NCBI GenBank assembly: GCA_009924895.1
Contig: RFQR01000004.1
Coordinates: 16,328 to 80,327, forward strand
Reading direction: 5' to 3'
DNA from: a bacterium
GTDB taxonomy: Bacteria > Patescibacteriota > Minisyncoccia > Phycocordibacterales > UBA2100
DNA length: 64,000 nucleotides
Below, in pieces: positions 4,306 to 51,379 of this stretch. Position 1 is the first letter of the stretch, and each line of letters starts with the position of its first letter. A program made the position numbers and the translations under genes. Under the pieces are notes generated by a model. That model was not told where the DNA came from, ran no database searches, and saw only the letters and a program-made list of their open reading frames with translations.

Positions 4306-4329
4306 AACAAAAGATGCTGGTATATCCGT

Positions 4330-4743
4330 TTAAATACCACCACCCAGTTTTTCATTTAAAAATGCGAGCCATCCAGCCGTATTCCTCTCACCTTGATATT
4401 CGACTATTTTACCGTCGGTCGTTTCTAAAAGAAACGTAGGAAACCCCTTGACGGGCTTTCCCTTTGCAGCCTCAGGGTTTTTTGCAGCATCAATCATGCG
4501 GATTTCGCATTGTTTTGTGCCGACTTGCATGGGCGATGTCTTTAAAAACTCCGTAAACTCTGGCTTCACGCTTTTACAGTGAGGGCACCAATCGGCATAA
4601 TATAATGTAAATGTATTGTTGGCCGGGGCTGGATTTTGAAAGCCTGCTATACCAGAACCAAAAGAAATCCCCAATGCGTATAAGGAAAGCGCACTAAGGA
4701 TCGCAAGGATTACAAGGCCTAGTAATATTGCTTTCCAGTTCAT
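4330..4743 (-). CDS. Thioredoxin-fold protein with N-terminal membrane anchor (CPHC active site)
   Basis: N-terminal hydrophobic helix ILLGLVILAILSALSLYAL, then YYADWCPHCK. Confidence 0.8.
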   Translation of the reverse strand: MNWKAILLGLVILAILSALSLYALGISFGSGIAGFQNPAPANNTFTLYYADWCPHCKSVKPEFTEFLKTSPMQVGTKQCEIRMIDAAKNPEAAKGKPVKGFPTFLLETTDGKIVEYQGERNTAGWLAFLNEKLGGGI

Positions 4744-8768: not shown

Positions 8769-9617
8769 ATGTCGGAACAAATAAAGATTTGCAACCCATG
8801 GAACGCTAAGAATAAGATCATTCCAGAAAAGGAAATTGCTCGTATTCTTACCACTTACGGGGTGCATGATGAATTCAAAGACCTTCGCCTTTTTAAACAG
8901 GCATGTGTTCATACCAGTTATGTGGATAAATCTGATATATGGGCAAAGCAAGAGGAGGCAATGATCCTTGCTGAAAGGCCTGCGAACTGCCTACCTCTTC
9001 AAGTAGGGGATAACGAAGAACTCGAATATGCAGGAGATGGAATATTAAGTGCAGTCGTGGCAACGTATTTGAAGGAGCGGTTTTCTGGACAAGGAGAGGG
9101 ATTTATGACAAATTTACGAACTGAAATTGTGAACAATGATCGCTTGGGAGATTTAGCAAAAAAGGTTGGATTTGCGCCATGGCTTGTGATTAGTCGTCAC
9201 GTAGAAGAAGTGTGCGATGGAAGGCAAAATCTTCGTTTACTCGGGAGTATGTTTGAAGGGTGGTTGGGGGCTTTATATTATTCAGCAGGAAAGGGGGGGA
9301 GAGGATTTGAAGCAGTGCAAAACTTTGTGACGTCCGTGCTTGAGAAACACATTTATTTTGTAGAACTTATTACTAAAAATACAAACTATAAGGATCAGTT
9401 ATTGCGATGGTTCCAAGCAGAGTATCATCAACCACCCAGATATAAAGTTGTGCATGAAGAAGGGCCGTCACATGATCGTATGTTTACGATGGGTGTTTTA
9501 TCTCCAGAAGGGGATGTAATTGCAACTGCGATTGCAAGAAATAAAAAAGAGGCGGAACAAAGTGCAAGTCATAAAGCGTTGGATATATTAACAAAGCGTT
9601 CTACACAAAAGAAATGA
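8769..9617 (+). CDS. Ribonuclease III with C-terminal dsRNA-binding domain
   Basis: ELEYAGDGILSAVVATYL is the RNase III signature (ERLEFLGDA-type). C-terminal PPRYKVVHEEGPSHDRMFTMGV...KKEAEQSASHKALDIL is a dsRBD. Confidence 0.9.
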   Translation: MSEQIKICNPWNAKNKIIPEKEIARILTTYGVHDEFKDLRLFKQACVHTSYVDKSDIWAKQEEAMILAERPANCLPLQVGDNEELEYAGDGILSAVVATYLKERFSGQGEGFMTNLRTEIVNNDRLGDLAKKVGFAPWLVISRHVEEVCDGRQNLRLLGSMFEGWLGALYYSAGKGGRGFEAVQNFVTSVLEKHIYFVELITKNTNYKDQLLRWFQAEYHQPPRYKVVHEEGPSHDRMFTMGVLSPEGDVIATAIARNKKEAEQSASHKALDILTKRSTQKK

Positions 9618-9636: not shown

Positions 9637-12600
9637 ATGGAAGCGGGAGTACCAAAAGGTCGAGGTCGAACCTTTGGTGTTGGAAAAAAAGCACCCCCCG
9701 AGTTACAAGTTCCTGTCAAATCATCGGAGGATATTCGACCCAGCTTTGATAAATCACAACTAAAGCCGGCAGTTTCCTATGTAGCTCAGCCAATGTTTTC
9801 AAAACCAAAACCAAAACAAAAAAACAATTCCAAGTCGGTAGGAGCCCCCGCACCAAAGCCAAAGGCACCTGTTGTGAAACCTGAGACAAATACACTTGCG
9901 GATATCTTGGAAAGTGAAGAGGATGCTAAGGCGACTATCAAAGAGGCTGAAAAGGAAACGCCTGAAGAGGAAACGCCTGAAGATGAGATTTCAGAAGAGC
10001 CTGTCTATGGCGCACTCACAGGTGAACTAAAAAAGATGGGCGATCTTATTGTAGAGGGTGAAAGAAAGAATTTATATAATACAAATGTTCCTACTACATA
10101 TATTCCTCAAACTCGTCGTGGGTTTTCACAGTTTATCAAAAAAACATATGCGCCATTTGAACTTCCTGCGGGACCTATTACAATTCCAAAAGGTGATACA
10201 TATTATCCCTATCAGAAGTTTGTGCGTGATTATATGCGCAAAGAATCGCCATATAGAGGTATTCTTGTATATCATGGGCTCGGATCAGGAAAAACATGTA
10301 CGGCAATTGCCGCATCCGAGGCCCTGTTTGCCACTGCGAAGAAAAAGATTATTGTCCTTACTCCCTTTTCGCTAAAAAAGAACTTTTTGAAAGAAGTAAG
10401 TTTTTGCGGATTCAGGCATTTTCAACTACAGAACTATTGGGTCCCTCTAGATGTAAAAGACCCTACGACCACTCTGTTTGCAAATCAGATATATGGACTC
10501 TCGGGTAAGTATATAAAAACGGCCAAACATATCTGGGTTCCTGACTTTCGAAAGCCCCCCTCCGAATCGAACTACAAAACACTACATGACGAAGACCGTA
10601 TGGAAATACGTAAACAAATTCTCACAATGGTAGAATGGGATCCTGTAAAGAATCCGTCAGGTCGTATTCGATTCATTTCATATAATGGTATTTCTGCCAA
10701 GAAACTTATGGCAATGGCGTGCGACACATCCAATAAAAAGTTTTTTGATGATGCTATTATTGTAGTAGATGAAATACATAATCTGATTCGATTGATGCAG
10801 GGGAAGATTCAACCATATTTGACAAAACAAGGGCCCGGCAATAAAAAGGTTCGTAGAACGGTTCCTGTGGAAGAGATTACTCCCGAGCGTTGGAAGCCCA
10901 GTCTATGCACGGAAAGCACAAAAATGTATACGCGGGGATATTTGTTTTATAGACTTCTGTTGGATGCAAAAAACTCTAAAATCATTGGTCTCAGCGGGAC
11001 ACCTCTTATCAACTTTCCAGAGGAACTTGGAATATTAGCGAATATTCTGCATGGATATACAAACACATTAGAAGGTGTTATTGGGCAATCGGGCAAATCG
11101 GTGCAAGAAGATGTAGAAAAAGTTGCTCGTGCGCATCCGCATATAGATTACGTATCTGCAAAACAGGATCCCAGGGGGGGTGGGGTGCGTGTATTGATGA
11201 CACTTCTACCTGCAGGAATACGAAAGATTGAAAATGAAGAGGGTGTTATACGTATTCCAGAAGATGAAGATATTCCTTCAAATGAAGAAATCCTTACATC
11301 TATACGAACTGCATTTGAAGGCGCCGATATTTCCTTTAGTGGGGAGTTGAAACATCGCTCTGTAGAGCTATTACCACCTTTTGGTGATATGTTTACGGAA
11401 TATTTTGTAAATGGACAGTCTATTAAATCCAAGGCTGTATTAATAAAACGTTTAACGGGGCTTATATCGTATTATAAGGGGTCGAGCCTAGAACTGATGC
11501 CTCGTGTGAAAGTGGATGAGATTGTGCGCGTCCCGTTTAGTTTGTATGCACAAAAGGCATATTCATTCAAAAGGTCTACGGAAGTGAAATCGGAGATGGA
11601 GAAAACGCCTGGGCAAACGATTGATGCTGTATGGGCACAAGTCTATGAGCTGGGTGATTCGGCTTCTGCGAATAACTATAAGATGGGCTCTAGACAAGCC
11701 TGTAACTTTGCATTTCCTCCAGGTGTAACACGGCCTTCTGCGAGTGCTATTGATTTGAAACAAGAAGCCGAGGCGGGGGAGAGTTTCACGGGAATCACGG
11801 ATACTCCTACGGAAGAAAAGTATGCGGACGACGAACTTCAACTGACGAATGATGAACTCATGGATGTGTCTGAAATAGCAAAGGAGGATGACACGATTGA
11901 AGAGACATTATATGAAGTAGAAGACGTAGAAGTATCCGCTAAGCCTGCCGTGAAGCCTGCCGTGAAGCCTGCCGTGAAGCCTGCCGTGAAGCCTGCAGGA
12001 CAAACACGTAAAGCAAATACCCCTACAGGTGATATTCGCTTTTCAAATAAGTTAGAAAATGAATATAAAGTATTTGATACATATGCACCAACTCCATTTA
12101 CAATTACGACAGGAGGTCATACCGATACATTTCCAACGATAGAACATTATTATCAGGCTATGAAATTTAAGACTACAGATCCTGACTGGTATAAAACAGT
12201 GCGTGACGCGCCTACACCTGCAAAAGCAAGGGAGTTAGGGGGTGAAAAGGGACATCCTGTGAATCCGAACTTTATGGCGAGCCGTTTGGAATATATGAAG
12301 CGAGCCATGGATATTAAGTTTGGCTCAAATAAAGAGTTAGCAGCCCTGCTTCTTTCAACTGGCGATAAAAAACTTATACAAGCATCTCCTGTCAATAGCT
12401 TTTGGGGGGAAGGTGGTGAAAAAATGGGGGAAAATCATCTTGGCAAAATGCTTATGGAAGTGCGCGGTGAACTGAAGCTAATAGAAGGTATGCCGGATCT
12501 GGAAGGTGGTGATCCAAGCGATATAGAATGTAAAGCTGGAACAAAACCTGGAGAGAAATATCCGGCAGCGTGTGCAAGGGCCAAAGAATGTTTGAAAACA

Positions 12601-22272: not shown

Positions 22273-23586
22273 ATGGCATATGGCATTCTATTTGCTGCAG
22301 TTATACTTGCATCCATTGCAGTTATATACTTTTTTGTGTTAGAGGGATTTCAAGCACTCCCTGCATATACACAATCCAATATGGAAGATACATGTAAAGC
22401 ACTTACGAGTTGTAGTAAATGCCTTGCAAATAAGGATTGTGGATGGGCGGTTGATTATGCGGGTCCGGTAAAAGGACTTCCTGGTGTCGCAGATGGAACT
22501 ATTCTGGCATGTATTCCAAGTCAATCAGGGAAGCCATATGTAACACCTAACTTACAAAACTGGATGGTATTACGGGATGGTACAAAACAACTTACGAATT
22601 TTATAAGCGATCTTGCAAAATGCACGGATATAACATGCACATCTTTTACATCGTGTGCAACATGTGCATTTTATAATACATGCGCATGGCAACAAACAAA
22701 TGCCCCCGACGGAACCTTACAACAATCGTGTATAAATACTGGATCCGGTTCTGGATCTGGTTCTGGTTCTGGATCTGGTTCTGGATCTGCTATAGATACC
22801 AACGTGAATACTATTACAAGTGTGAGTATGTGCCCTCCTCCACAATGCAAGGACCTTACAGACTGTGTGACATGTGCAAATACAACAGGATGTGGCTTTT
22901 GCACGAACTCTGGAAAATGTATGAAACAGTCCGAGTTTGGTTCAGGCTCAAATCAATGTGACCCAAAGGCTCAAATAACGCTTCCTGTGAAATGTCCATG
23001 TAATGTTATTACAGATTGTGCAAGTTGTGCCAATAGAACGGGGTGTGGATTTTGTAAGACAAATAAACTATGTGTGAATTTGAATGCGATGGGGTTGCCT
23101 CCCATGGGGACTTGCACACCGGAGGACGTTTTAACAAATGGGTCTCAATGTAGTCCTGGTAATGATATAAAACCGGATGGTACAGGACTTGATACACGAA
23201 CGGCGCCGAATCCTACACAAGCGGATATTGATGCAGCGGCGACTTCTGGAAACTTGGCGGTAGGAGGGGATATGACTCTTCAGACAAATGCAGTGAGGCC
23301 TGAAAGAACACCTGTGAGTTCTTCTGTATCATATCCACTGATAACAGCCCCAGGAGTTGCTCGAAGAGTTGGTGCAAGTTCAGTTCCAGCTACAGTGCGG
23401 CCTGGAACAGAAATGGCTTCACCTTTAGAGTCCTATGTAAAGATGCTTGTAAACTCACAGCTTGCTGCACAAGGTATTCCAACAAATGAGCCATTCCAAG
23501 TAAATGAATCTACTGCTATTCCAAATGCAACTGATTATTTGAAAAAGATATTTCGTGGCGTCTTTTCAGAATCTACGAGGTTCTGA
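22273..23586 (+). CDS. Cys-rich membrane/secreted glycoprotein with repeated PSI/plexin-like CxxCxxxxxCGWC modules and a (GS)n linker
   Basis: N-terminal TM helix. Repeats TSCSKCLANKDCGW, TSCATCAFYNTCAW, TDCVTCANTTGCGFC, TDCASCANRTGCGFC. GSGSGSGSGSGSGSGS at nt 22741-22790. Confidence 0.7.
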   Translation: MAYGILFAAVILASIAVIYFFVLEGFQALPAYTQSNMEDTCKALTSCSKCLANKDCGWAVDYAGPVKGLPGVADGTILACIPSQSGKPYVTPNLQNWMVLRDGTKQLTNFISDLAKCTDITCTSFTSCATCAFYNTCAWQQTNAPDGTLQQSCINTGSGSGSGSGSGSGSGSAIDTNVNTITSVSMCPPPQCKDLTDCVTCANTTGCGFCTNSGKCMKQSEFGSGSNQCDPKAQITLPVKCPCNVITDCASCANRTGCGFCKTNKLCVNLNAMGLPPMGTCTPEDVLTNGSQCSPGNDIKPDGTGLDTRTAPNPTQADIDAAATSGNLAVGGDMTLQTNAVRPERTPVSSSVSYPLITAPGVARRVGASSVPATVRPGTEMASPLESYVKMLVNSQLAAQGIPTNEPFQVNESTAIPNATDYLKKIFRGVFSESTRF

Positions 23587-23591
23587 AAAAA

Positions 23592-23684
23592 TAGCGGGAC
23601 CTAGTTTCGATCTAGGGACCTATGGGTTACTGGGAGACCAAGGCATCCTATGAGCCCATCGCAATTCCTCTTTGCTATCCCGCT
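23592..23684 (-). tRNA. tRNA-Met (CAU) with eukaryotic initiator-like features and a 21-nt intron after position 37
   Basis: Minus strand folds as AGCGGGA-TA-GCAA-AGAGGAA-TTGC-G-ATGGG-CTCATA[GGATGCCTTGGTCTCCCAGTA]A-CCCAT-AGGTC-CCTAG-ATCGAAA-CTAGG-TCCCGCT-A. It has an A1:U72 pair and three consecutive G:C pairs closing the anticodon stem. The T-loop is AUCGAAA (A54, A60) and the discriminator is A73. Exons total 72 nt. Confidence 0.7.
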
Positions 23685-23711
23685 TTTGAGATACTATGAG
23701 TGTCTCAAAAG

Positions 23712-23785
23712 CGGCCCAAGAGGGAGTTGAACCCTCGATCTTTCGGTTAACAGCCGAATGCTCTAACCAACTGAGCTATCGGGCC
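23712..23785 (-). tRNA. tRNA-Asn (GUU), eukaryote-type
   Basis: Minus strand GGCCCGATAGCTCAGTTGGTTAGAGCATTCGGCTGTTAACCGAAAGATCGAGGGTTCAACTCCCTCTTGGGCCG forms a 74-nt cloverleaf. The anticodon arm TTCGGCTGTTAACCGAA is identical to animal tRNA-Asn. A T-run follows the 3' end. Confidence 0.9.
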
Positions 23786-23842: not shown

Positions 23843-24163
<321 letters not shown>

Positions 24164-41287: not shown

Positions 41288-41728
41288 ATGAGTCGTGGGA
41301 CACGGAAATATTATGCCGGATTATCAAAGAAGCAGGCCACCCGCAGAAGGGGCGAAATCGCGCATAGAAAAACCATGGATTGGCGGGATCCGGCTGCGTA
41401 TATTCCATTTGGAACGGATACGGGGGTGAAAACGCGGCAGTCAGGGTATACGGCCAAATGGAAGCGAAAGTTTCCAGGCGCAAAGTCATTGGATGAAAAG
41501 GCTGCCGCGACGGGGGTGCCTTTGAAATATATTCGCGAATCCTATAATCGCGGAATGGCTGCCTGGCGCACGGGTCATCGACCAGGCGCCACACAACAAC
41601 AATGGGGATATGCGCGTGTGCATTCGTTTCTTCTATGCGGAAAGACGTATCATACAACCGATTCCGATATTGCATCGGAGGCGAAGAAATCTTCCAAAGG
41701 GGCGAGAGATTGGTTTACCAGGTGCTAA
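41288..41728 (+). CDS. Hypothetical conserved-looking protein (146 aa)
   Basis: Distinctive block PLKYIRESYNRGMAAWRTGHRPGATQQQWGYARVHSFLL. Family not identified. Confidence 0.5.
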   Translation: MSRGTRKYYAGLSKKQATRRRGEIAHRKTMDWRDPAAYIPFGTDTGVKTRQSGYTAKWKRKFPGAKSLDEKAAATGVPLKYIRESYNRGMAAWRTGHRPGATQQQWGYARVHSFLLCGKTYHTTDSDIASEAKKSSKGARDWFTRC

Positions 41729-44700
41729 AATCGGATAATGGGGAGTTCTTGAAACCGCGCGTGCGGAACGGGATAACTTACCCGTGTTCTATCGTGCACT
41801 GTTGTCCAGTATACACCATTTTGAGAGCTTTCTAGTTTCCATCGAACCGGGTCACCTTCAATTCCATTGTCAGGATTTGCAGTTGTCCACGTAAAACCGT
41901 CCATGAGCACTGCATATGGAAATGCAAATACGAGTGCCTTTTTATTCATATCCGACCATCCCTTTCGGTAGCCATCCCCGTTCACATCTTGTATATCTCC
42001 AACCCAAGTCCCCAAGGGATTTGTCACTTTGGCATTGCGTATATCGATTTCCTGATTCCCCAAGAAGAAACGAAACTTTGATATATGGACGCTTGGATGA
42101 TCAGGGGAGCGGGTTTTAATGGGTCGAAAACGGATATATTTATAACTATTTCCCTTGTTTGTATGGGTATGAACAACCGCGTCTGCTTGACGAAGGGGCT
42201 CGTCATACATAATGTTTAGATCCCCCCCTTTGTTGCGTATTCTATCGAGGCCAAAGGAGGGTGTATCTAAGGGAAATGTGGATTCTGTTATTTGGATGGG
42301 TGCGCCATAGTTCGTAAATGCCTCTTTATTCGGATTTACATAGGGATTGGAAGTATCTGAAACGGTTGTTGGCATTTTCACAGAATCAAACGATACAGGT
42401 ATATTCCAAGATGATTCAGAAAAGGGTATTACAGCTGTATCATTCGTTTGCATGGGCTTGATAGCATAGCAAGTGGCCCCTGCTAGACCGTTGGATATGG
42501 GTTGTTTGTTGACTCCTGGAGAACCAGTGCCACAGTCCGTTGTGACAGGAAAATATCCAAAGGATTTTATTCGAATACTAGATGTTTGTTTATCGAGCCT
42601 TCCTAAAGAAGATGAACTAGACGTGAGTGTTAAAGAATCTCCATCAAACCCACCATCTGAAAATAATGTTACTTCTAAACCGGTGGGCACATCTACTTTA
42701 TACACCCCGTCGTTTATAATTCCAGATGTTTTCATTGGATCTATACCATACTCCCCTGCCCCTAATGAAACTATGGGTCCTTCTGTTCCATCTGGGTTTT
42801 TACTGAAAAAGGTTGCCACAGTGCCCGAAATCCATCCAGGAGAGCACCAGTGTGCCCCCGCGTTTTGAGCTGCTACAAGTTGATCATATGTCGCAAGCCC
42901 TCCACCGTATGTGCTACATATATTTGCCGCATCTTTTTGCGAAGAACTAGTTTTAACATGAAATACTTCAAATGCCCTATTTCCTGTAGATATTGTATTT
43001 ATATTTCGGAGAAGATCATCTGGGGGTTGCGGAAGAATAGGGAACATGTTCACAGCATCAAATGCGCATTCCGCAAGTTTGGAGGGTTGCATTGTGAAAC
43101 GCATTCCGCTTGTGGTAGATGAACTAACATTATATGTATTTCCAGAAGGTATCAGTGTATCTTCTTGATATGTAATATCACATGTATTTGCGTCAAGGGT
43201 TCCAACACGTGTGATGGTATTTATTTGTTTTTTGTGCAGATTTTTACTTGTGTAATAGCGTATCATTTCATTTAGAACAGCGGTGTCTTTACAGGATGTA
43301 GTTGGACATGATCCTAAAAATCCAATCGCACCTGCAGAGGAAAGTGTATTTTTTCGAAAATCAGGAAGAATCGCGGCAGTAGAAGAAGTTACTGCCGATA
43401 TATTGGAAGAGAGACTATTCATCATGCTAGATAAAGTTGTTTCAACACCCGTTTTAATTTGGGACGCATATTCCATTGGTTTATAAAGTTGGGGTATATT
43501 GTCTTGAATAAATGTGCCGCCGCCTTTTGTAGAATCTTTTGCAGTATCATATTGAATACTACAGTCGGATATATTCGTATGAACATATGTGGAGAGTTTA
43601 ACACCCTTTATCACTCCAGAGGGGAGCGGAGTCGTCACAGGGACTTCTGCACCTGATTTATTATATGAGAAAGAGCCCTTTTTTACCATGACTCCTTTTG
43701 CATTTGCAATCGTAGAATCATAATTTATATCTGCTTCTATATCACATTGATACTTATTTGCTGTAACCGCGCGAGTGATTCGTAAAATGGACCCAGGAAC
43801 AGTTGGATCATTGTTATATTGGTCTGCTATACGAAATAGAACATCCAAATCTTCACATGTTGTTTTATTTCTACATCCTCCACTTGCATTATCTAAATAG
43901 TTGTTGGTAGGCACGGGTTTTGGAAATATGAAAGGAGTATCCCATATACCCATATCGTTTGGCTTAGGCATAAACGCAAATCCAGAAATATCAAATACTG
44001 CATCATCGGAACCCCATAGACCTTTATCTATTGTATATGGGAACTTCGCTGCTCGTGAAATAGATGGTTGGGGTTTATTTGCTACATCATCCCATGGTAT
44101 TTCATCCCATATTATATCGCATTGCATATTATTAAAATAACTAGTTCTTGCAGATCGAATCTTGTCTATACGCAATGTATATTTCTTTATATTCACATCG
44201 GGTGCCTTATTCCCTCCTACATCTATAGTATTTGTTAACTTAATATCTCCTGCGTCTACAGCATCTATATAGTCATTCATTATGCGACGAAGAGTATCAC
44301 GATCATTGCATGCAAATCCGATATTTGTATTGTATGTATATTGTATGGTTGGAGCATAGTTAACATTTCCTGATATTGCGCTATTTGTTTCTTTCGGGCC
44401 ACAATTGAATTCAGAAAGAAAAGATGTGACGCAACGTGAATCCATTGAAAATCCAGAAATACTAAACGTTCCATTCGATGTATCATATGTGTAGAAGAAA
44501 CGACCCACGACTCCTTGAATAGGAGGAAGAACTGCCGCAGCAAGTTGTTCTTCTAGTTTTGCCACATTTGATTCATATGAGTTTCGTGCCTGATCGAGTA
44601 TATCTTGGGACATTTGTGTCGACTTCTGAATATTTGTATACTTGTCTTTTATTTCTTTAATTCTATTTTGTATATCTGTCGTATCGGATTGCTTTTGAAG

Positions 44701-46197
44701 ATCAAATCGCAGGTCTAGAATTGTATCTCCTATGGTTGAAATGTGAATTATAGTACTCATAATATATTTGCCATTCATAGATTCATAGAACGATTGTGCA
44801 ATAGAATCTAACATAGCCTTGTTGTTAATATCGAGCCCTATTCGTTGGCCATTTACCGTGGGTATCATAAACTTAAGGGTATTGACGGATTTTTCTAAAA
44901 GAGATGAATCATTTATATATTTTTGTTTCATAATACGGATCGTGCGGGAATAAATCCACTGTATTATGAATGTGCGCGCCGCATATGGAAGTAATCCAAG
45001 CATATCGTTTGTAAATAGGGTAGAACAATGCCCATTGTTGAATGATTTATTTTCCTCTGATACAACTGTTTTATAATCGGTCCCTTGTACGGACTGTATC
45101 AACTCTGTGCGACAAAAGTGTTCCTGACCTGTGCTTGAACGAATATACGGCTGTAAATCATCATATCGTATATTTATGAATTTATCTATATCATCTGTTG
45201 CGCCCAGAAATATTTTCTTACATAGATCTATACTTCCTTTCATTTGATTCATGGCCGTATCCGTGATTGTGCCAACATAATGGATATTACAATTCATGTT
45301 TTGCAGTTGGTTTACATCATATCCTCCGAGTTCATATAGGAGATTTATAGGAGATGTTATAACGAGGGTGGAATAGAGACTACTATTTGCCATATCAGGG
45401 CGTGCCTGTATCCAAGAGCTTGGAACGCGTAAATCCGAGGCGGCCGAACCATGATTCTCTATGACGTATTCATATACTCTTTCAAGGTCAATAAAAGGGA
45501 AACTGTTTGTAGAAATATTTGACGAACCATTGAAGGATATAACTAACGGCGAAATAGGATATACAACACCATCTACTGGCGAAGGTGTTAGGTTTATAAA
45601 GTTGGGAAATGTGACACTTTGCGTAATATCGGTAGATAAATAACTTTGGGAGTCCACAACCTGTCCCTGAGCATCCACTATGACGGCGTTCATACCTGCG
45701 ATACCACTTAACATTATATTATCCGAATCTCCTCTTCCTGTAAATATCACTTCCGATATTTGATATGTATTACCGAGATCCACCTGCCAATATGCATTTG
45801 AATAGTTTAAACCGGCTTGCCATGTCTTATTTAATCCTATTCTAGGAGTTGTTACACCATCTACTGTGACGGATATATCCGCAGAACCTGAAAAGTTAGC
45901 AGGGTTTACATTCGTTGAAACAGGTTTTTGTAATGCTAGATTTGTTCCATTCATATCTAGCACTTGAATTTGTGATATTCTCAAATATCCGTCACCGTTC
46001 ATCGGTGTATATATACGAACATATCGACCTAATGTAGTTTTTAAAGATTTTAAATAGGATTCCATATCAACATAGTTAAGAAAGCCGTCTGCCAAGGAGC
46101 CCCTGTTTGGTTTAGATATATGCCCACTTTGATGTATAATATATACGAGTAATAAGATAATTCCTATCCCTAACAGGGTGTAGATTATCCAGCCCAT
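41725..46197 (-). CDS. Giant type-II membrane protein (1490 aa) with F5/8 type C (discoidin)-like carbohydrate-binding domains
   Basis: N-terminal TM IYTLLGIGIILLLVYII. AYWQVDLGNTYQISEVIFTGRGD is the discoidin hallmark. A second galactose-binding-like domain sits at the C-terminus. Confidence 0.8.
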   Translation of the reverse strand: MGWIIYTLLGIGIILLLVYIIHQSGHISKPNRGSLADGFLNYVDMESYLKSLKTTLGRYVRIYTPMNGDGYLRISQIQVLDMNGTNLALQKPVSTNVNPANFSGSADISVTVDGVTTPRIGLNKTWQAGLNYSNAYWQVDLGNTYQISEVIFTGRGDSDNIMLSGIAGMNAVIVDAQGQVVDSQSYLSTDITQSVTFPNFINLTPSPVDGVVYPISPLVISFNGSSNISTNSFPFIDLERVYEYVIENHGSAASDLRVPSSWIQARPDMANSSLYSTLVITSPINLLYELGGYDVNQLQNMNCNIHYVGTITDTAMNQMKGSIDLCKKIFLGATDDIDKFINIRYDDLQPYIRSSTGQEHFCRTELIQSVQGTDYKTVVSEENKSFNNGHCSTLFTNDMLGLLPYAARTFIIQWIYSRTIRIMKQKYINDSSLLEKSVNTLKFMIPTVNGQRIGLDINNKAMLDSIAQSFYESMNGKYIMSTIIHISTIGDTILDLRFDLQKQSDTTDIQNRIKEIKDKYTNIQKSTQMSQDILDQARNSYESNVAKLEEQLAAAVLPPIQGVVGRFFYTYDTSNGTFSISGFSMDSRCVTSFLSEFNCGPKETNSAISGNVNYAPTIQYTYNTNIGFACNDRDTLRRIMNDYIDAVDAGDIKLTNTIDVGGNKAPDVNIKKYTLRIDKIRSARTSYFNNMQCDIIWDEIPWDDVANKPQPSISRAAKFPYTIDKGLWGSDDAVFDISGFAFMPKPNDMGIWDTPFIFPKPVPTNNYLDNASGGCRNKTTCEDLDVLFRIADQYNNDPTVPGSILRITRAVTANKYQCDIEADINYDSTIANAKGVMVKKGSFSYNKSGAEVPVTTPLPSGVIKGVKLSTYVHTNISDCSIQYDTAKDSTKGGGTFIQDNIPQLYKPMEYASQIKTGVETTLSSMMNSLSSNISAVTSSTAAILPDFRKNTLSSAGAIGFLGSCPTTSCKDTAVLNEMIRYYTSKNLHKKQINTITRVGTLDANTCDITYQEDTLIPSGNTYNVSSSTTSGMRFTMQPSKLAECAFDAVNMFPILPQPPDDLLRNINTISTGNRAFEVFHVKTSSSQKDAANICSTYGGGLATYDQLVAAQNAGAHWCSPGWISGTVATFFSKNPDGTEGPIVSLGAGEYGIDPMKTSGIINDGVYKVDVPTGLEVTLFSDGGFDGDSLTLTSSSSSLGRLDKQTSSIRIKSFGYFPVTTDCGTGSPGVNKQPISNGLAGATCYAIKPMQTNDTAVIPFSESSWNIPVSFDSVKMPTTVSDTSNPYVNPNKEAFTNYGAPIQITESTFPLDTPSFGLDRIRNKGGDLNIMYDEPLRQADAVVHTHTNKGNSYKYIRFRPIKTRSPDHPSVHISKFRFFLGNQEIDIRNAKVTNPLGTWVGDIQDVNGDGYRKGWSDMNKKALVFAFPYAVLMDGFTWTTANPDNGIEGDPVRWKLESSQNGVYWTTVHDRTRVSYPVPHARFQELPIIRF

Positions 46198-47191: not shown

Positions 47192-50100
47192 TTAGGATAT
47201 TTTTTGTAATACTTCGTTCACTTTATTACTTGGTTTTGCAGTATTATAAGAGAATAAGGACGGGGTTATTCGCTCCACCCCTTCTACAAAGACAGTTCCA
47301 GCGGTAGTTATGGATACTGTATCGGGATCAAACTCTATTACTTCTTTTAAACTGTTTGTATCACATGCATCTGAAAAAGATGCTGTCAGATATGTGCTAA
47401 TACCTGTATTTATTGAAGAGTTGCTTGCAATAGACGATTTCTTCGTAACATCCTTCATAATCATATATTCACACATAGAGGGAGTTCTTGCAAAACTTTG
47501 TTGTATTGCGGTAAGGGTTTGCAGTGTCGTATTTACACTCGTATCATAGGACGATGTCTTACTGGATTGCTTGGAATCAAATGCCCTTTTAATACTTGAG
47601 ACTACATTTGGGTCGCGACAGTTTATTTGACACTGTGGGTTTGTATAGGGTGTATCCAAAGAACTACTAGATGTTAGCCCATATGCATTATTGCTTATAT
47701 CGGTATATGAGGATATACTTATGAGATTGCGTATAGCTGTAGGTGTTAAGGGTGTAGCACACACGGATCCTGCATTGTTTATATTTATTTTAAATCGTTT
47801 TGCAAGTGTATTTGTTTGAGTTACAATGGGATTATATAAAATATCATCATATGCATTATATAACTCTGAAAATAATACATCACATGTAGCATCGATATTA
47901 CTTGGGGGAGCCCATTCATACTTCTTCGTTTTTGTAGTGCCGATTGCAGAAATTTGTGACATTGTACGAGTTGTCTTTATAGTTTCATTGGACGCGGGTG
48001 TCGTGCTTGCATTGTAATATTCCATAATCATATTCATTACAGTTGGATTATTGCATTTTAGTTGCTTTATTGCTTGCGCCCCATATACCGAACATGCTTC
48101 TAAGAATACTTGTGATGCGCCAACGGTGTTCGTTAGATTTATGACAGTGGTCTCTGCTTTATTTACATTTTCGTCGAGGGCTTTCGTAGGATTTGAATCT
48201 ATGATCGGTTTGACAACGGATGATAGCATATTCATAATCTTATCCCCTATCGTATTAAATGTTAGTATACCGCCTACTGTATCTACTGATTGGAGATAGG
48301 GTGTATTTTCTTGAATAAAAGTTGAATCATAGCTATAGTTACTAAAACTATACGAGCAGTTGGGAAATGTCAATCGGATGGCATTCGGCGTGCTTATATT
48401 GGGAAGATTTGTTTGCCATATAGGAGTTGCATTTATATCATTGTCTACTAAGACTTGCATATATGTTTTTGAAATATTTGTAAGGGGGGCATCGAGTCCT
48501 GGGCAATAGTCAATAGCATTGATTGGATATACTGCGCCCAAATCAATTTCAATATATTCATTAGATTGTGTATTATTTCCTAGTTCCCAATAGTCTCCTG
48601 CATTGCGAGGCCCCGTATATCCATCCACGATTGTATCAGGTGTGCTTGCTCTATATTTTTTAGATGTAGCAAAAACAGGTTTGTTTAATGCAATATTCAC
48701 ACTATTGGACCACACAACAATCTGCGAAACTGCAAGGTATCCTGGGCCTCCATTTGCTGCAGGAGTCATACGCACATATCTTCCATATGCGATACCGTTA
48801 TCAGATGTTCTATCTGTTACACCTACCTGTGCTGAAACTATGTCTCTACCCACTGTTGTTTTTCCATTACCTACATCTCGAAGCATTTCTACGTCATAGT
48901 CGCACCTATCTGTGGAACGTGTAACAGCACGCAACACCTTTAGAATCTGGTTTGTGTTGTTACTATTAAACTGTTGTATAAATGTATCGATTTGTCGTTT
49001 GTCTTGGCAGCGGGCGGGACAGCTACCTAATGTAGTTTCGATTGGTAAAGCACGAGGCACTACAAACGGGGCTTTGGGCACATTAAACTGATTTATCACT
49101 TGATCCGTGAAGTCGACATATTGTATATAATCTTGATTTGAAGTTGCCTTTTCCGCCACTTGTGCCCCGTTTGCATCCAATATTTGGATTCGAATCCCTG
49201 CGTTACGGGATGTATTAGGGGAATCTAACATTCCATATATATATACAGTATTAATCAACTGAAGATATCCTAAATCTATATCCACATACTCATCTTGCCC
49301 ATTCATTTGAAATATATTTTCTACTCCATTTAACACAGCGATTGTTCCATCCACGATTTTAGTAGGCCCTTTTCCGCCATTTGAACTGGTAGATCTCGCA
49401 TATTTATTCAACGCGGCGTTTTTACCTACGCTATTATATACAACTACTTGCGATAACTGTAGTATTCTATCATTTGCTGTAAGAGATGGTCTTATACGAA
49501 TATAACGACCCTGTATTTTGGGAACTGATAAAGTTCTTCGCGTAGGATATATTGTTTCCTGTGTTAAAGGGTCTGTATAGGAACGGAGTGGATATTGGTT
49601 CCAATCTTGTGAAAAGTCGTCTGTTGGGGCCCATACACATGTGCTTTTATCTTTTATCTCGTATCTTCTTACAACTTCTTCAAACTGTATATCTGTGCCC
49701 TCTACATTTCTAGATGGATCATACGATACACTTGTCCATTTATAATAACATCCATTCTTTCCACGTGGTTCAATACCTAATACTGTTTTAATATGTTTAT
49801 TTCGCAAGGTTTGATACCGATTTATAGTATCGCGCAATACAAACTCATTGGTGCACAATAACTCCGTTGTTATGACTTTTTCACAAAATGAAAAACTAGG
49901 AACATATCCGCTTTTATCCGCGGCCCTTTTCTCGTATATAGGTCCGTGATTAATCGTATAGTAATCATTATTTGTGGCGACGAATAATCCATCTTTTGGA
50001 TTGCCTACGATTTGATGTTCAACGGATTTTCCTAAAGAGACGGATACTGCATGGGCTCTATCATATGCATCTGTCACTGCTTGTCCTGCCATACCTCCTG

Positions 50101-51379
50101 CGATACCTCCCGCAATACCTCCTACAACTGCATTTCCTCCTGCTCCAAAAGGTCCTGCGCCCGCAACAGCGCCTGCGCCCAAATTCACGGCCATCGTCGC
50201 ACTTGTAGTTGCAAGAGACCGTTGAAATGTATTCATGTCCCAGCCTATTTTACCGGCTTCTTTCTTTGTAACTTCAAAGATTTTGGGCACAGAGATAGGA
50301 GGATCTACGCCTTCATCGGCAGACTTTACATGAGCCGCAGGTGCAGTAAAGTCTGTATGTGTGCAGCCGGTTACAATAAACAGATTCACAGTATTTCCAG
50401 TCGTGGATACTGGTTGACTGACTGAATTTGCATTTTTATCTGTTTCAGATTTGCTGAAGTAAAATCGACGATAGGACACCGTATTTCCAGGATCATCATC
50501 GTATGTGGTCCCGTATGATTCTGTATAGTTATCGCCTGTAATAGGATGGAAGGATACTGTTTTCATTGCGCAGGCGACATCACAGGATAGTTCAGAGGAT
50601 GCTATGACGCCATAAAACATCACAATATATTCAAAACTGAGTCTACCATCGGATAATAACTTTGCATGCAATGTAGATTGATCATAATAAAACTGGGCCA
50701 TGCGATCCATCATAATAGGGTGTGCAAAATCACACACAGGAAAATCGAGTTGATTCGTATTTGTAGGAGGATTCAATCCTGGATCATATACAGTAACGGT
50801 TTTTGGAAGCATTGCTGGTCGCGCATATGTTTGCTTGTTCCCCCAACACACGCCGGCCACTTCATGAAACCCATCACGACATCGTTCACGACAAAGAGCC
50901 CCTACATCGATATCATTACCCCTACATCCCTTCCAGCAGACACCTAAGACTTCTTTTTCATCACCGCTACAATTTTCACGACAAAGAGCCCCTACATCTT
51001 TATCGCCTGGATTACATCGCCCCCAACATACGCCTAAGACTTCATTCTCTTGATCGTTACATTTATCACGGCAAAGAGCCCCCACATCTGTTTGATTACC
51101 TGTACAGTCTTGCCAGCATACGCCTAACACATAGCGCCACCCAGGTCCATATGAATCACAATTCTTTTTTGTGCAAAGTGGTAGTATAACCCAGTCATCG
51201 TCACCTGGATTACAGGATGAAACACAGAGTCCCACGCCATTATGTTTAAAAGTATCCCCATATTTCCTACAATTCTTCTCTCGTTCCAATACACTATGTT
51301 TAATTTTTTTCATATATGTATCATACCTGCAGTTACTCCAATCTTGACATAGTGGAAAACATACGCCCCCACCACCCAT
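47192..51379 (-). CDS. Giant protein (1395 aa) with N-terminal 4x Cys-rich tandem repeat and discoidin-like domains
   Basis: Four repeats of VLGVCWxxCxxxDxDVGALCRExCxxxExE, encoded by DNA repeats at about 50800-51300. YVDIDLG and YIEIDLG discoidin-like motifs. Gly-rich hydrophobic segment GAVAGAGPFGAGGNAVVGGIAGGIAGGMAG. Confidence 0.8.
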   Translation of the reverse strand: MGGGGVCFPLCQDWSNCRYDTYMKKIKHSVLEREKNCRKYGDTFKHNGVGLCVSSCNPGDDDWVILPLCTKKNCDSYGPGWRYVLGVCWQDCTGNQTDVGALCRDKCNDQENEVLGVCWGRCNPGDKDVGALCRENCSGDEKEVLGVCWKGCRGNDIDVGALCRERCRDGFHEVAGVCWGNKQTYARPAMLPKTVTVYDPGLNPPTNTNQLDFPVCDFAHPIMMDRMAQFYYDQSTLHAKLLSDGRLSFEYIVMFYGVIASSELSCDVACAMKTVSFHPITGDNYTESYGTTYDDDPGNTVSYRRFYFSKSETDKNANSVSQPVSTTGNTVNLFIVTGCTHTDFTAPAAHVKSADEGVDPPISVPKIFEVTKKEAGKIGWDMNTFQRSLATTSATMAVNLGAGAVAGAGPFGAGGNAVVGGIAGGIAGGMAGQAVTDAYDRAHAVSVSLGKSVEHQIVGNPKDGLFVATNNDYYTINHGPIYEKRAADKSGYVPSFSFCEKVITTELLCTNEFVLRDTINRYQTLRNKHIKTVLGIEPRGKNGCYYKWTSVSYDPSRNVEGTDIQFEEVVRRYEIKDKSTCVWAPTDDFSQDWNQYPLRSYTDPLTQETIYPTRRTLSVPKIQGRYIRIRPSLTANDRILQLSQVVVYNSVGKNAALNKYARSTSSNGGKGPTKIVDGTIAVLNGVENIFQMNGQDEYVDIDLGYLQLINTVYIYGMLDSPNTSRNAGIRIQILDANGAQVAEKATSNQDYIQYVDFTDQVINQFNVPKAPFVVPRALPIETTLGSCPARCQDKRQIDTFIQQFNSNNTNQILKVLRAVTRSTDRCDYDVEMLRDVGNGKTTVGRDIVSAQVGVTDRTSDNGIAYGRYVRMTPAANGGPGYLAVSQIVVWSNSVNIALNKPVFATSKKYRASTPDTIVDGYTGPRNAGDYWELGNNTQSNEYIEIDLGAVYPINAIDYCPGLDAPLTNISKTYMQVLVDNDINATPIWQTNLPNISTPNAIRLTFPNCSYSFSNYSYDSTFIQENTPYLQSVDTVGGILTFNTIGDKIMNMLSSVVKPIIDSNPTKALDENVNKAETTVINLTNTVGASQVFLEACSVYGAQAIKQLKCNNPTVMNMIMEYYNASTTPASNETIKTTRTMSQISAIGTTKTKKYEWAPPSNIDATCDVLFSELYNAYDDILYNPIVTQTNTLAKRFKININNAGSVCATPLTPTAIRNLISISSYTDISNNAYGLTSSSSLDTPYTNPQCQINCRDPNVVSSIKRAFDSKQSSKTSSYDTSVNTTLQTLTAIQQSFARTPSMCEYMIMKDVTKKSSIASNSSINTGISTYLTASFSDACDTNSLKEVIEFDPDTVSITTAGTVFVEGVERITPSLFSYNTAKPSNKVNEVLQKIS

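Follow-up and report, generated by a model that had tools for sequence, protein, structure and literature searches.

Organization of the locus and detection of the initiator gene

We analyzed a 64-kb window, by which we mean the whole stretch of DNA taken from contig RFQR01000004.1 (97,724 bp, from a genome presumed to be larger), and within it a pair of tRNA genes on the minus strand at positions 23592 to 23785. A first-pass annotation of this DNA had proposed that the two genes lie 27 nucleotides (nt) apart and encode a tRNA-Asn(GUU) and a eukaryote-type, initiator-like tRNA-Met(CAU) interrupted by an intron. The spacing is as proposed, with the gap at 23685-23711, and the segment is made up of the following features.

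23712..23785, minus strand: tRNA-Asn(GUU), intronless; anticodon GTT at 23751-23749, discriminator G at 23712, no encoded CCA
23680..23714, minus strand: inter-tRNA hairpin with arms of 16 nt (23680-23695 and 23699-23714), one mismatch, and a 3-nt loop; from a repeat search, 94% complementary
23649..23684, minus strand: tRNA-Met 5' exon, 36 nt, positions 1 to 37 without nt 17; anticodon CAT at 23652-23650 and A37 at 23649; from the sequence, intron-aware ARAGORN, and the covariance model R1 described below
23628..23648, minus strand: 21-nt intron GGATGCCTTGGTCTCCCAGTA at site 37/38; from R1, the indels of relatives at the same point, the intronless relative L171, and a constrained fold
23592..23627, minus strand: tRNA-Met 3' exon, 36 nt, positions 38 to 73; from the sequence, intron-aware ARAGORN, and R1
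23563..23589, minus strand: hairpin directly 3' of tRNA-Met, with arms of 12 nt (23563-23574 and 23578-23589) and a 3-nt loop; from a repeat search, 92% complementary

Default ARAGORN did not report the second tRNA in the window, nor did Rfam find it there at the gathering threshold or at an E value of ≤10. These misses reflect a sensitivity limit for initiators with introns and are no evidence against the gene. With intron detection, ARAGORN returned a 72-nt tRNA with a 21-nt intron at c[23592,23684]. We also used R1, a covariance model derived from 44 intronless giant-virus initiator tRNA genes, each differing from the window gene by at least 15 nt. Over both strands of the window, its top match was 23595-23682 on the minus strand (60.1 bits, E = 2.5e-16), with a 22-nt insertion right after CAUA; the runner-up was tRNA-Asn (42.5 bits), and the best match outside the tRNAs had an E value of 1.4.

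The eukaryotic initiator hallmarks claimed for the second tRNA (A1:U72, G29-31:C39-41, an AUCGAAA T-loop, and A73) can all be read in the DNA. The A at 23684 stands opposite the T at 23593 as A1:U72, A73 lies at 23592, and the acceptor stem forms seven of seven pairs with no CCA encoded. Three consecutive G:C pairs (GGG/CCC at 29-31:39-41) flank the anticodon loop, and the T-loop ATCGAAA has A54 and A60 in place of T54 and a pyrimidine at 60. The D-loop has 7 nt (AGAGGAA) and lacks nt 17, while the 3' exon runs through CCCAT, the variable loop AGGTC, the T arm CCTAG-ATCGAAA-CTAGG, and the acceptor strand TCCCGCT to the discriminator A73. Removal of the intron leaves a 7-nt loop, CTCATA/A, with the anticodon CAU. 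As far as sequence can establish it, both tRNA genes are confirmed as real and the second as a eukaryote-type initiator tRNA-Met(CAU) with a 21-nt intron.

Syntenic relatives carry introns of different lengths

Metagenomes were scanned for near-exact exons with 0 to 30 nt allowed at 37/38, which gave 16 loci (L numbers are our labels for metagenome and IMG/VR loci). The order found in the window, tRNA-Asn, hairpin, tRNA-Met, and hairpin, is repeated in 6 of the 16 (L162, L164, L165, L168, L171, and L176). A seventh syntenic relative, L159, was found via its homologue of the window's poly(A) polymerase, which is 80% identical; the search for such homologues returned 6559 metagenomic relatives. 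At 37/38, the insert measures 26 nt in L159, L162, and L176, 21 nt in the window, 10 nt in L164 and L165, and 0 nt in L168 and L171. The intronless gene of L171 equals the two exons of the window gene joined together and is identical to the predicted 72-nt spliced product. Across the eight syntenic genes, the exons vary at two positions only, in contrast to the divergent intron, spacer loop, and flanks. Among close relatives the intron changes quickly and can be lost, with the exons staying constant.

A search with the adjacent open reading frame (ORF), which has a PSI domain, gave one more distant relative, L161, whose ORF is 52% identical to that of the window. In L161 the same slot (4313-4586) holds tRNA-Asn, tRNA-Gln, and tRNA-Leu and no initiator. 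The genomic slot is a variable tRNA islet.

Intron-containing initiator genes recur in giant viruses

In IMG/VR, 38 loci show the initiator signature with 9 to 32 unrelated nt at 37/38, and they represent 29 distinct genes besides that of the window. Giant-virus contigs in the same database carry at least 110 distinct eukaryote-type initiator genes that are intronless. The insert lies at 37/38 in all 30 distinct viral genes, and these have A1:T72 in 29 of 30 cases and A73 in all 30, neither of which was forced by the search pattern. Four of the 29 have exact intronless twins elsewhere, on different contigs, once their introns are taken out. The earlier statement that eukaryotic initiator tRNAs are normally intronless holds for model eukaryotes, but the intron form recurs in giant viruses, at these 38 loci, so that the window gene is less exceptional than the statement made it seem.

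Several arrangements were seen among these loci. A widespread marine tRNA cluster has Gln-Tyr-Asn (Thr in some loci) followed by an initiator with a 22- to 24-nt intron (L002 and L003, with the duplicates L012, L016, L021, L022, L026, L030, L031, and L035), and intron-aware ARAGORN makes no call for the initiator at any of them; if these genomes are prasinovirus-like, published tRNA counts may lack an initiator. Locus L141 holds an intronless twin of a related gene of the L008 type. Two initiator genes, with introns of 11 and 32 nt (L005 and L015), share one contig of 119,264 bp, IMGVR_UViG_GVMAG-S-1101171-110_000001. An intron-containing and an intronless copy with identical mature sequence (L027 and L078) occur in one metagenome-assembled genome (MAG), GVMAG-S-1101166-124_000001. 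Near some viral initiator genes (L023, 12527-12614; L033, 499-586; L170/L172/L175), ARAGORN makes odd calls of "tRNA-Stop(tta)" and of "tRNA-SeC(tca)" with an 8-nt intron, which could be suppressor-like tRNAs or miscalls caused by intron placement.

The intron lies at 37/38 and the anticodon is CAU

The intron-aware ARAGORN run that the first-pass annotation had suggested gave exactly the coordinates noted there, but its label was Thr(CGT) and not Met. The program cuts ATAGGATGCCTTGGTCTCCCA at 33/34 to arrive at Thr(CGT), whereas placement at 37/38 cuts GGATGCCTTGGTCTCCCAGTA and gives Met(CAT). Either cut is formally allowed, since the last three letters are ATA in exon 1 and GTA in the intron; in some genes, with A residues on both sides, the junction is formally ambiguous by one nt. 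The second gene could thus be taken for a tRNA-Thr(CGU) with a noncanonical intron between 33 and 34. Beyond the label itself, it speaks for this that cutting ATAGGATGCCTTGGTCTCCCA also leaves a 7-nt loop, CTCGTAA, and that L159, L162, and L176, with introns ending in CCAGTA, are equally ambiguous. However, A1:U72, GGG:CCC, A54/A60 in ATCGAAA, and A73 are specific to initiators, and a model made of initiators only scores the gene at 60 bits with the insertion after CAUA. Also, the intronless syntenic genes L168 and L171 read CTCATAA, and the isotypes that ARAGORN assigns to the relatives are inconsistent (Pro, Leu, Thr, Ala, Ser, and some Met), whereas the 37/38 reading always yields CAT. We therefore reject the Thr(CGU) label on the comparative evidence and hold a tRNA-Thr to be extremely improbable.

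The Met(CAT) placement follows from the initiator elements in the body of the tRNA, the R1 insertion after CAUA, the syntenic intronless genes, and the IMG/VR genes, and so rests on comparative data, not on ARAGORN. The insertion of 21 nt at the canonical 37/38 site, as first described, is borne out by R1, by the intronless L171, and by the 29 other distinct viral genes, all of which give CAU.

Selection acts on the mature tRNA

We compared the stems of 23 distinct intron-containing genes after splicing. Twenty of the 21 stem pairs are standard in all 23, and the D-stem pair 13:21 is standard in 22. Where the search pattern left a pair free, up to six pair types occur per position; the same pattern appears in 129 genes once the intronless ones are added. 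Because stem pairs are kept with compensatory changes, and because exons are fixed while intron and flanks diverge, the signature is, on comparative grounds, that of purifying selection on a tRNA predicted to be functional and not of a pseudogene.

It is important here to consider whether the second gene might be a pseudogene in decay, once an initiator and put out of action by the insert in its anticodon loop. The insert is variable and dispensable, ranging from 0 to 26 nt in the syntenic relatives, it lacks a strict bulge-helix-bulge motif (see below), and the gene sits in a variable tRNA islet where one relative (L161) has Asn, Gln, and Leu and no Met, all of which would agree with decay. 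Against it, the exons are nearly invariant in the eight syntenic genes as insert and flanks diverge, and the 30 distinct genes have their inserts all exactly at 37/38 and keep every nonforced stem pair through compensatory changes. A G that can pair with C32 is moreover enriched at intron position -3 (P = 2e-4), and random disabling insertions would not be expected at the one splicing-competent site alone. We thus regard decay as improbable and a working initiator gene as the better account.

Intron anatomy and the splicing machinery

The intron has an internal hairpin within its 21 nt and ends in the 3' tail CCAGUA. In this tail, G(-3) can pair with C32 and A(-4) with U33, so that U(-2), A(-1), and A38 stay unpaired in a 3-nt bulge that contains the 3' splice site. 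A pair of this kind, the anticodon-intron (A-I) pair, is used by eukaryotic splicing endonucleases (reviewed in PMC4090602). Position -3 is G in 16 of 27 independent intron families, against a background of 26% G (P = 2e-4), and a purine in 30 of 31 introns. In the window's lineage, the four long introns have the CCAGTA tail and a six-pair hairpin in common, with compensatory substitutions, such that the window has A:U where the other three have C:G; the 10-nt introns keep nothing but the tail.

A strict archaeal bulge-helix-bulge (3-nt bulge, 4-bp helix, 3-nt bulge), looked for by hand and by constrained folding, is not present in the precursor, as only two of the four central helix pairs are possible between positions 32-35 (CUCA) and intron positions -6 to -3 (CCAG). 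The archaeal-type reading was dropped for that reason. Eukaryotic endonucleases do not require the strict motif. The introns are also short (21 nt in the window and 9 to 32 nt in its IMG/VR relatives), and since 21 nt is too small for a group I or group II intron, self-splicing does not apply.

The anatomy fits removal by a protein endonuclease of the eukaryotic type together with a ligase. Pfam scans of the 39 ORFs of the window gave no match at Pfam thresholds to a tRNA-intron endonuclease, RtcB, or a Trl1-type ligase, and our full-text literature searches found no report of a tRNA splicing endonuclease in a giant virus. On the combined strength of these two negatives and the anatomy, dependence on the host splicing endonuclease would be the most economical inference. 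The first-pass annotation had presented this dependence as a consequence of the intron site; we consider it reasonable to infer but not a result.

Alternatively, the gene may be functional and its intron removed by an endonuclease and ligase that the virus itself encodes. Giant viruses have many RNA-processing enzymes, and an RNase III and a poly(A) polymerase are found in this window. Mimivirus-like replication takes place in cytoplasmic factories, away from the nuclear splicing endonuclease, and this also favors a viral enzyme. The two negatives given above stand against it, as does the combination of a canonical site, an A-I pair, and no bulge-helix-bulge, which is what a eukaryotic host enzyme requires. 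A viral splicing enzyme is thus unlikely in our estimation, though less so than a pseudogene, and host splicing is the reading that we carry forward.

The source contig belongs to a giant virus

Coding sequence makes up ~92% of the window, in long ORFs without introns on both strands. Pfam identified a Mimivirus-type poly(A) polymerase catalytic subunit (PF19244; 30217-31533, minus strand), which also matches PDB entries 4P37 and 4WSE; these two structures bear the title "Putative poly(A) polymerase catalytic subunit" and are, we presume, the Megavirus and Mimivirus enzymes. Other matches were an NAD-dependent DNA ligase, an XPG/FEN1 nuclease, and an ERCC4 nuclease, and an RNase III with a dsRBD is encoded at 8769-9617. 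Further families are a Ulp1/vaccinia-I7-like peptidase, patatin, a SWIB-domain protein, several glycosyltransferases, DUF5871, and DUF5759. Capsid, PolB, and A32 genes were not seen within the 64 kb. Two window proteins are identical to NBV77007.1 (EBR66_02515) and NBV77018.1 (EBR66_02575), whose contig is labeled "bacterium".

Because of the coding density and the virus hallmark genes (poly(A) polymerase, I7/Ulp1 peptidase, RNase III, and NAD-ligase), we assign the source contig, by its gene content, to an uncultured freshwater giant virus (Nucleocytoviricota, Mimivirus-like) of metagenomic origin that was mislabeled or misbinned in GenBank. The tRNA region is base for base the same in two independent assemblies (ENA ERZ28575157 scaffold_109 and Logan SRR8075959) and is therefore no assembly artifact. 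A cellular contig, eukaryotic nuclear or bacterial, on which the tRNAs would be ordinary genes of the organism, might be argued from the eukaryote-type tRNAs and from the "[bacterium]" label on the GenBank proteins. The dense, intron-free coding on both strands and the hallmark genes just named contradict this, and relatives of the tRNA gene sit on giant-virus MAG contigs in IMG/VR; for a bacterium in particular, an enzymatically spliced intron in a eukaryote-type initiator is incompatible. A cellular origin accordingly has next to no weight in our view compared with the viral one.

Hairpins follow both tRNA genes

Both hairpins are strong palindromes that begin right behind their tRNA genes. 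The inter-tRNA hairpin takes in 3 nt at the end of tRNA-Asn and 5 nt at the start of tRNA-Met, and it also appears when the dicistronic RNA is folded without constraints. Its stem is kept in L159 (12237-12271), L162, L164, L165, L168, L171, and L176, where the loop and one internal pair vary. The hairpin downstream of tRNA-Met overlaps the last codons of the convergent ORF at 22273-23586 (plus strand) and could serve both converging transcripts. Relatives keep it too, and an indel in its arms is compensated (TTTTCAG/CTGAAAA versus TTTTACAG/CTGTAAAA). Perfect hairpins of at least 8 bp occur within 46 nt downstream of 35 of 139 viral initiator genes (25%), compared with 28 of 2000 random windows of the same loci (1.4%), an enrichment of ~18-fold.

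Mimivirus transcripts reportedly end at hairpins, a regularity called the "hairpin rule". The tRNA-Met gene of the window has an A box, TAGCAAAGAGG, that agrees with TRGCNNAGTGG at 10 of 11 positions, and a B box, AGATCGAAACT, of the initiator type. The run of six T residues after it is the 5' arm of the second hairpin and is lost in L159; runs of four or more T residues within 12 nt follow 9 of 30 intron-containing and 26 of 109 intronless viral initiator genes. We therefore downgraded the run as a terminator for RNA polymerase III (Pol III), as it is one arm of a hairpin and not conserved. In the summary of Byrne 2009 given by PMC4810235, polyadenylated Mimivirus tRNA transcripts are described as observed, and transcription by the viral polymerase is assumed from them. 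Given this precedent and a hairpin after each tRNA, we favor transcription by a viral polymerase with hairpin-dependent formation of 3' ends, in which the RNase III at 8769-9617 may be involved.

tRNA-Asn and neighboring genes

For the first gene, ARAGORN (23711-23785, minus strand) and Rfam (RF00005, full-length match at 23712-23785, minus strand, 74.6 bits, E = 1.7e-14) agree with the original call of tRNA-Asn(GUU). All seven syntenic relatives keep the gene, and its acceptor and T stems show compensatory substitutions. Its anticodon arm, earlier likened to that of animal tRNA-Asn, differs in the closest relatives (CCGGA, versus CCGAA in the window), and its sequence therefore carries no special meaning. 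A comparison of AAC and AAU usage had also been proposed. Asn accounts for 4.9% of codons in the window, with AAT:AAC at 666:291, and the comparison brought out nothing distinctive, as tRNA-Asn(GUU) reads both codons. In some relatives the neighboring tRNA-Asn(GUU) itself has a 26- to 27-nt intron (L001, 8734-8966; L027, 3782-4020), and the arrangement of Asn next to initiator Met recurs on several unrelated contigs.

Just upstream of tRNA-Asn lies an ORF of 106 amino acids (aa) at 23843-24163 (minus strand), which may be cotranscribed with the tRNAs. At its end the product has a run of Arg-Ser dipeptides, PRSRSRSRSRSRSRSRR, which comes from the tandem repeat (CAAGGT)x8 at 23890-23935; the homologue in L159 (106 aa, 11832-12152) is without the repeat. 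Large ORFs at 41725-46197 (minus), 47192-51379 (minus), and 22273-23586 (plus) encode extracellular domains of metazoan style, namely Xlink (hyaluronan-binding), F5/8 type C (discoidin), and PSI (plexin repeat), and a role of these proteins in host-surface interaction is possible.

Proposed pathway

Taken together, these data make it likely that the segment is a giant-virus tRNA islet on the minus strand between two protein genes, comprising tRNA-Asn, a hairpin, an intron-split initiator tRNA-Met, and a second hairpin, and that the initiator would be spliced by the host and used for initiation. Both tRNA genes would be transcribed during infection, probably by the viral RNA polymerase and possibly as one precursor, and the hairpins would set the 3' ends, as they do in Mimivirus. 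The host would mature both ends with RNase P and RNase Z and add CCA. Next, the host would take out the intron with its protein-only tRNA splicing endonuclease and its ligase, a step suggested by anatomy, in which the endonuclease would find its cutting sites by distance from the mature domain and by the C32:G(-3) A-I pair, with the 3' splice site in the 3-nt bulge. The 72-nt product would bear every sequence identity element of a eukaryotic cytoplasmic initiator, would be charged by methionyl-tRNA synthetase, and would start translation with eIF2, so that the viral initiator would supplement the host initiator pool during infection.

Several observations weigh against parts of this scheme. 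The intron is absent from two syntenic relatives and is in that sense dispensable, and it need not have any function. The strict bulge-helix-bulge is missing, and the A-I pair, absent from the constrained minimum-energy fold, is a potential pair only. When the 93-nt precursor is folded freely, its minimum-energy structure is not a cloverleaf and is no more stable than shuffled sequences (z = -0.82); such folds are common among pre-tRNAs with introns. On transcription, the good A box TAGCAAAGAGG and the run of six T residues are compatible with Pol III, which, given that the B box is good as well, may be the polymerase instead. Finally, the scan for splicing enzymes covered 64 kb of the genome, and an enzyme could lie elsewhere.

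Implications

Many giant viruses bring their own initiator tRNA, the gate of every round of translation, which fits their known investment in initiation factors. Standard settings miss such genes or mislabel them as Thr, Ala, Pro, Leu, or Ser, and viral initiator tRNAs are therefore undercounted. Obligatory splicing would tie expression of the tRNA to host machinery that viral transcripts can reach, which would constrain host range and the site of processing. The allelic series of 26, 21, 10, and 0 nt with identical exons amounts to a natural experiment on tRNA intron function. The worth of the window gene itself lies in annotation and in understanding how giant viruses take over translation initiation.

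A broader proposal is that introns in viral initiator tRNAs are specific to viruses and change readily in evolution, and that cellular eukaryotes have nothing that regularly corresponds to them. It is prompted by 30 intron-containing versus at least 110 intronless genes, by unrelated introns at one site, and by twins with identical exons, some of them at a single syntenic locus, and we put it forward tentatively, as a rather doubtful generalization. If true, introns would have been gained or lost repeatedly inside viral genomes. This could imply a selected role, whereby the supply of initiator is made conditional on host splicing. Another possible role is in m1A58 methylation, the modification that stabilizes eukaryotic initiator tRNA. 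Methylation at m1A58 that depends on an intron was recently shown for the tRNA-Tyr intron (PMC12168002).

Comparison with known systems

In our full-text searches, whose coverage of the literature was incomplete, so that the result is weak evidence of novelty, no paper was found that describes a giant-virus initiator tRNA with an intron. Initiator and elongator Met are not told apart in a 2025 survey of introns in eukaryotic tRNAs (PMC12168002). Virus-encoded, intron-containing tRNAs of the eukaryotic type are a kind already known, and the locus is not a new kind of system. What seems not to have been written up before is the pattern at the level of the class, that is, initiators with introns and a series of 26, 21, 10, and 0 nt at one locus.

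One close counterpart is the eukaryotic cytoplasmic initiator (yeast IMT, human tRNAi-Met). The window gene shares with it a spliced length of 72 nt, CAU, A1:U72, G29-31:C39-41, AUCGAAA, and A73, as well as a 7-nt D-loop AGAGGAA without nt 17, a 5-nt variable loop AGGUC, and the lack of an encoded CCA. The loop CUCAUAA is presumably identical to that of the yeast initiator. The window gene differs in being viral and in having a 21-nt intron, and we know of no introns in the initiator tRNAs of model organisms. Its D stem is also A/U-rich (GCAA/UUGC), where most viral and cellular initiators have GCGC/GCGC.

Archaeal intron-containing initiators likewise have a short intron at or near 37/38 that is removed by a protein endonuclease (PMC4090602, on archaeal tRNA introns in general), but the window gene is without their strict bulge-helix-bulge, and its T-loop and context are eukaryotic/viral. 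Phages such as cyanophages and T5 encode a tRNA-fMet and so resemble this virus in bringing their own initiator (PMC4810235); that tRNA is of the bacterial type, without a protein-spliced intron and with other identity elements.

Among giant viruses, tRNA-Tyr genes with introns at the canonical site are known from PBCV-1, Aureococcus virus AaV, and Juan de Fuca mesomimivirus viral single-amplified genomes (vSAGs) (PMC9894930). Mimivirus tRNAs have introns of ~20 nt at 37/38, and introns occur in 73% of tRNA-bearing amoebal giant-virus genomes (PMC11946776). The window gene is like these in being a virus-encoded tRNA of the eukaryotic type with an intron of ~20 nt at 37/38 for which host splicing is presumed; it differs in isotype, the initiator not being reported in those two papers, and in the length polymorphism of its intron among syntenic relatives. 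The intronless giant-virus initiators of IMG/VR belong to the same gene family as the window gene and differ in having no intron.

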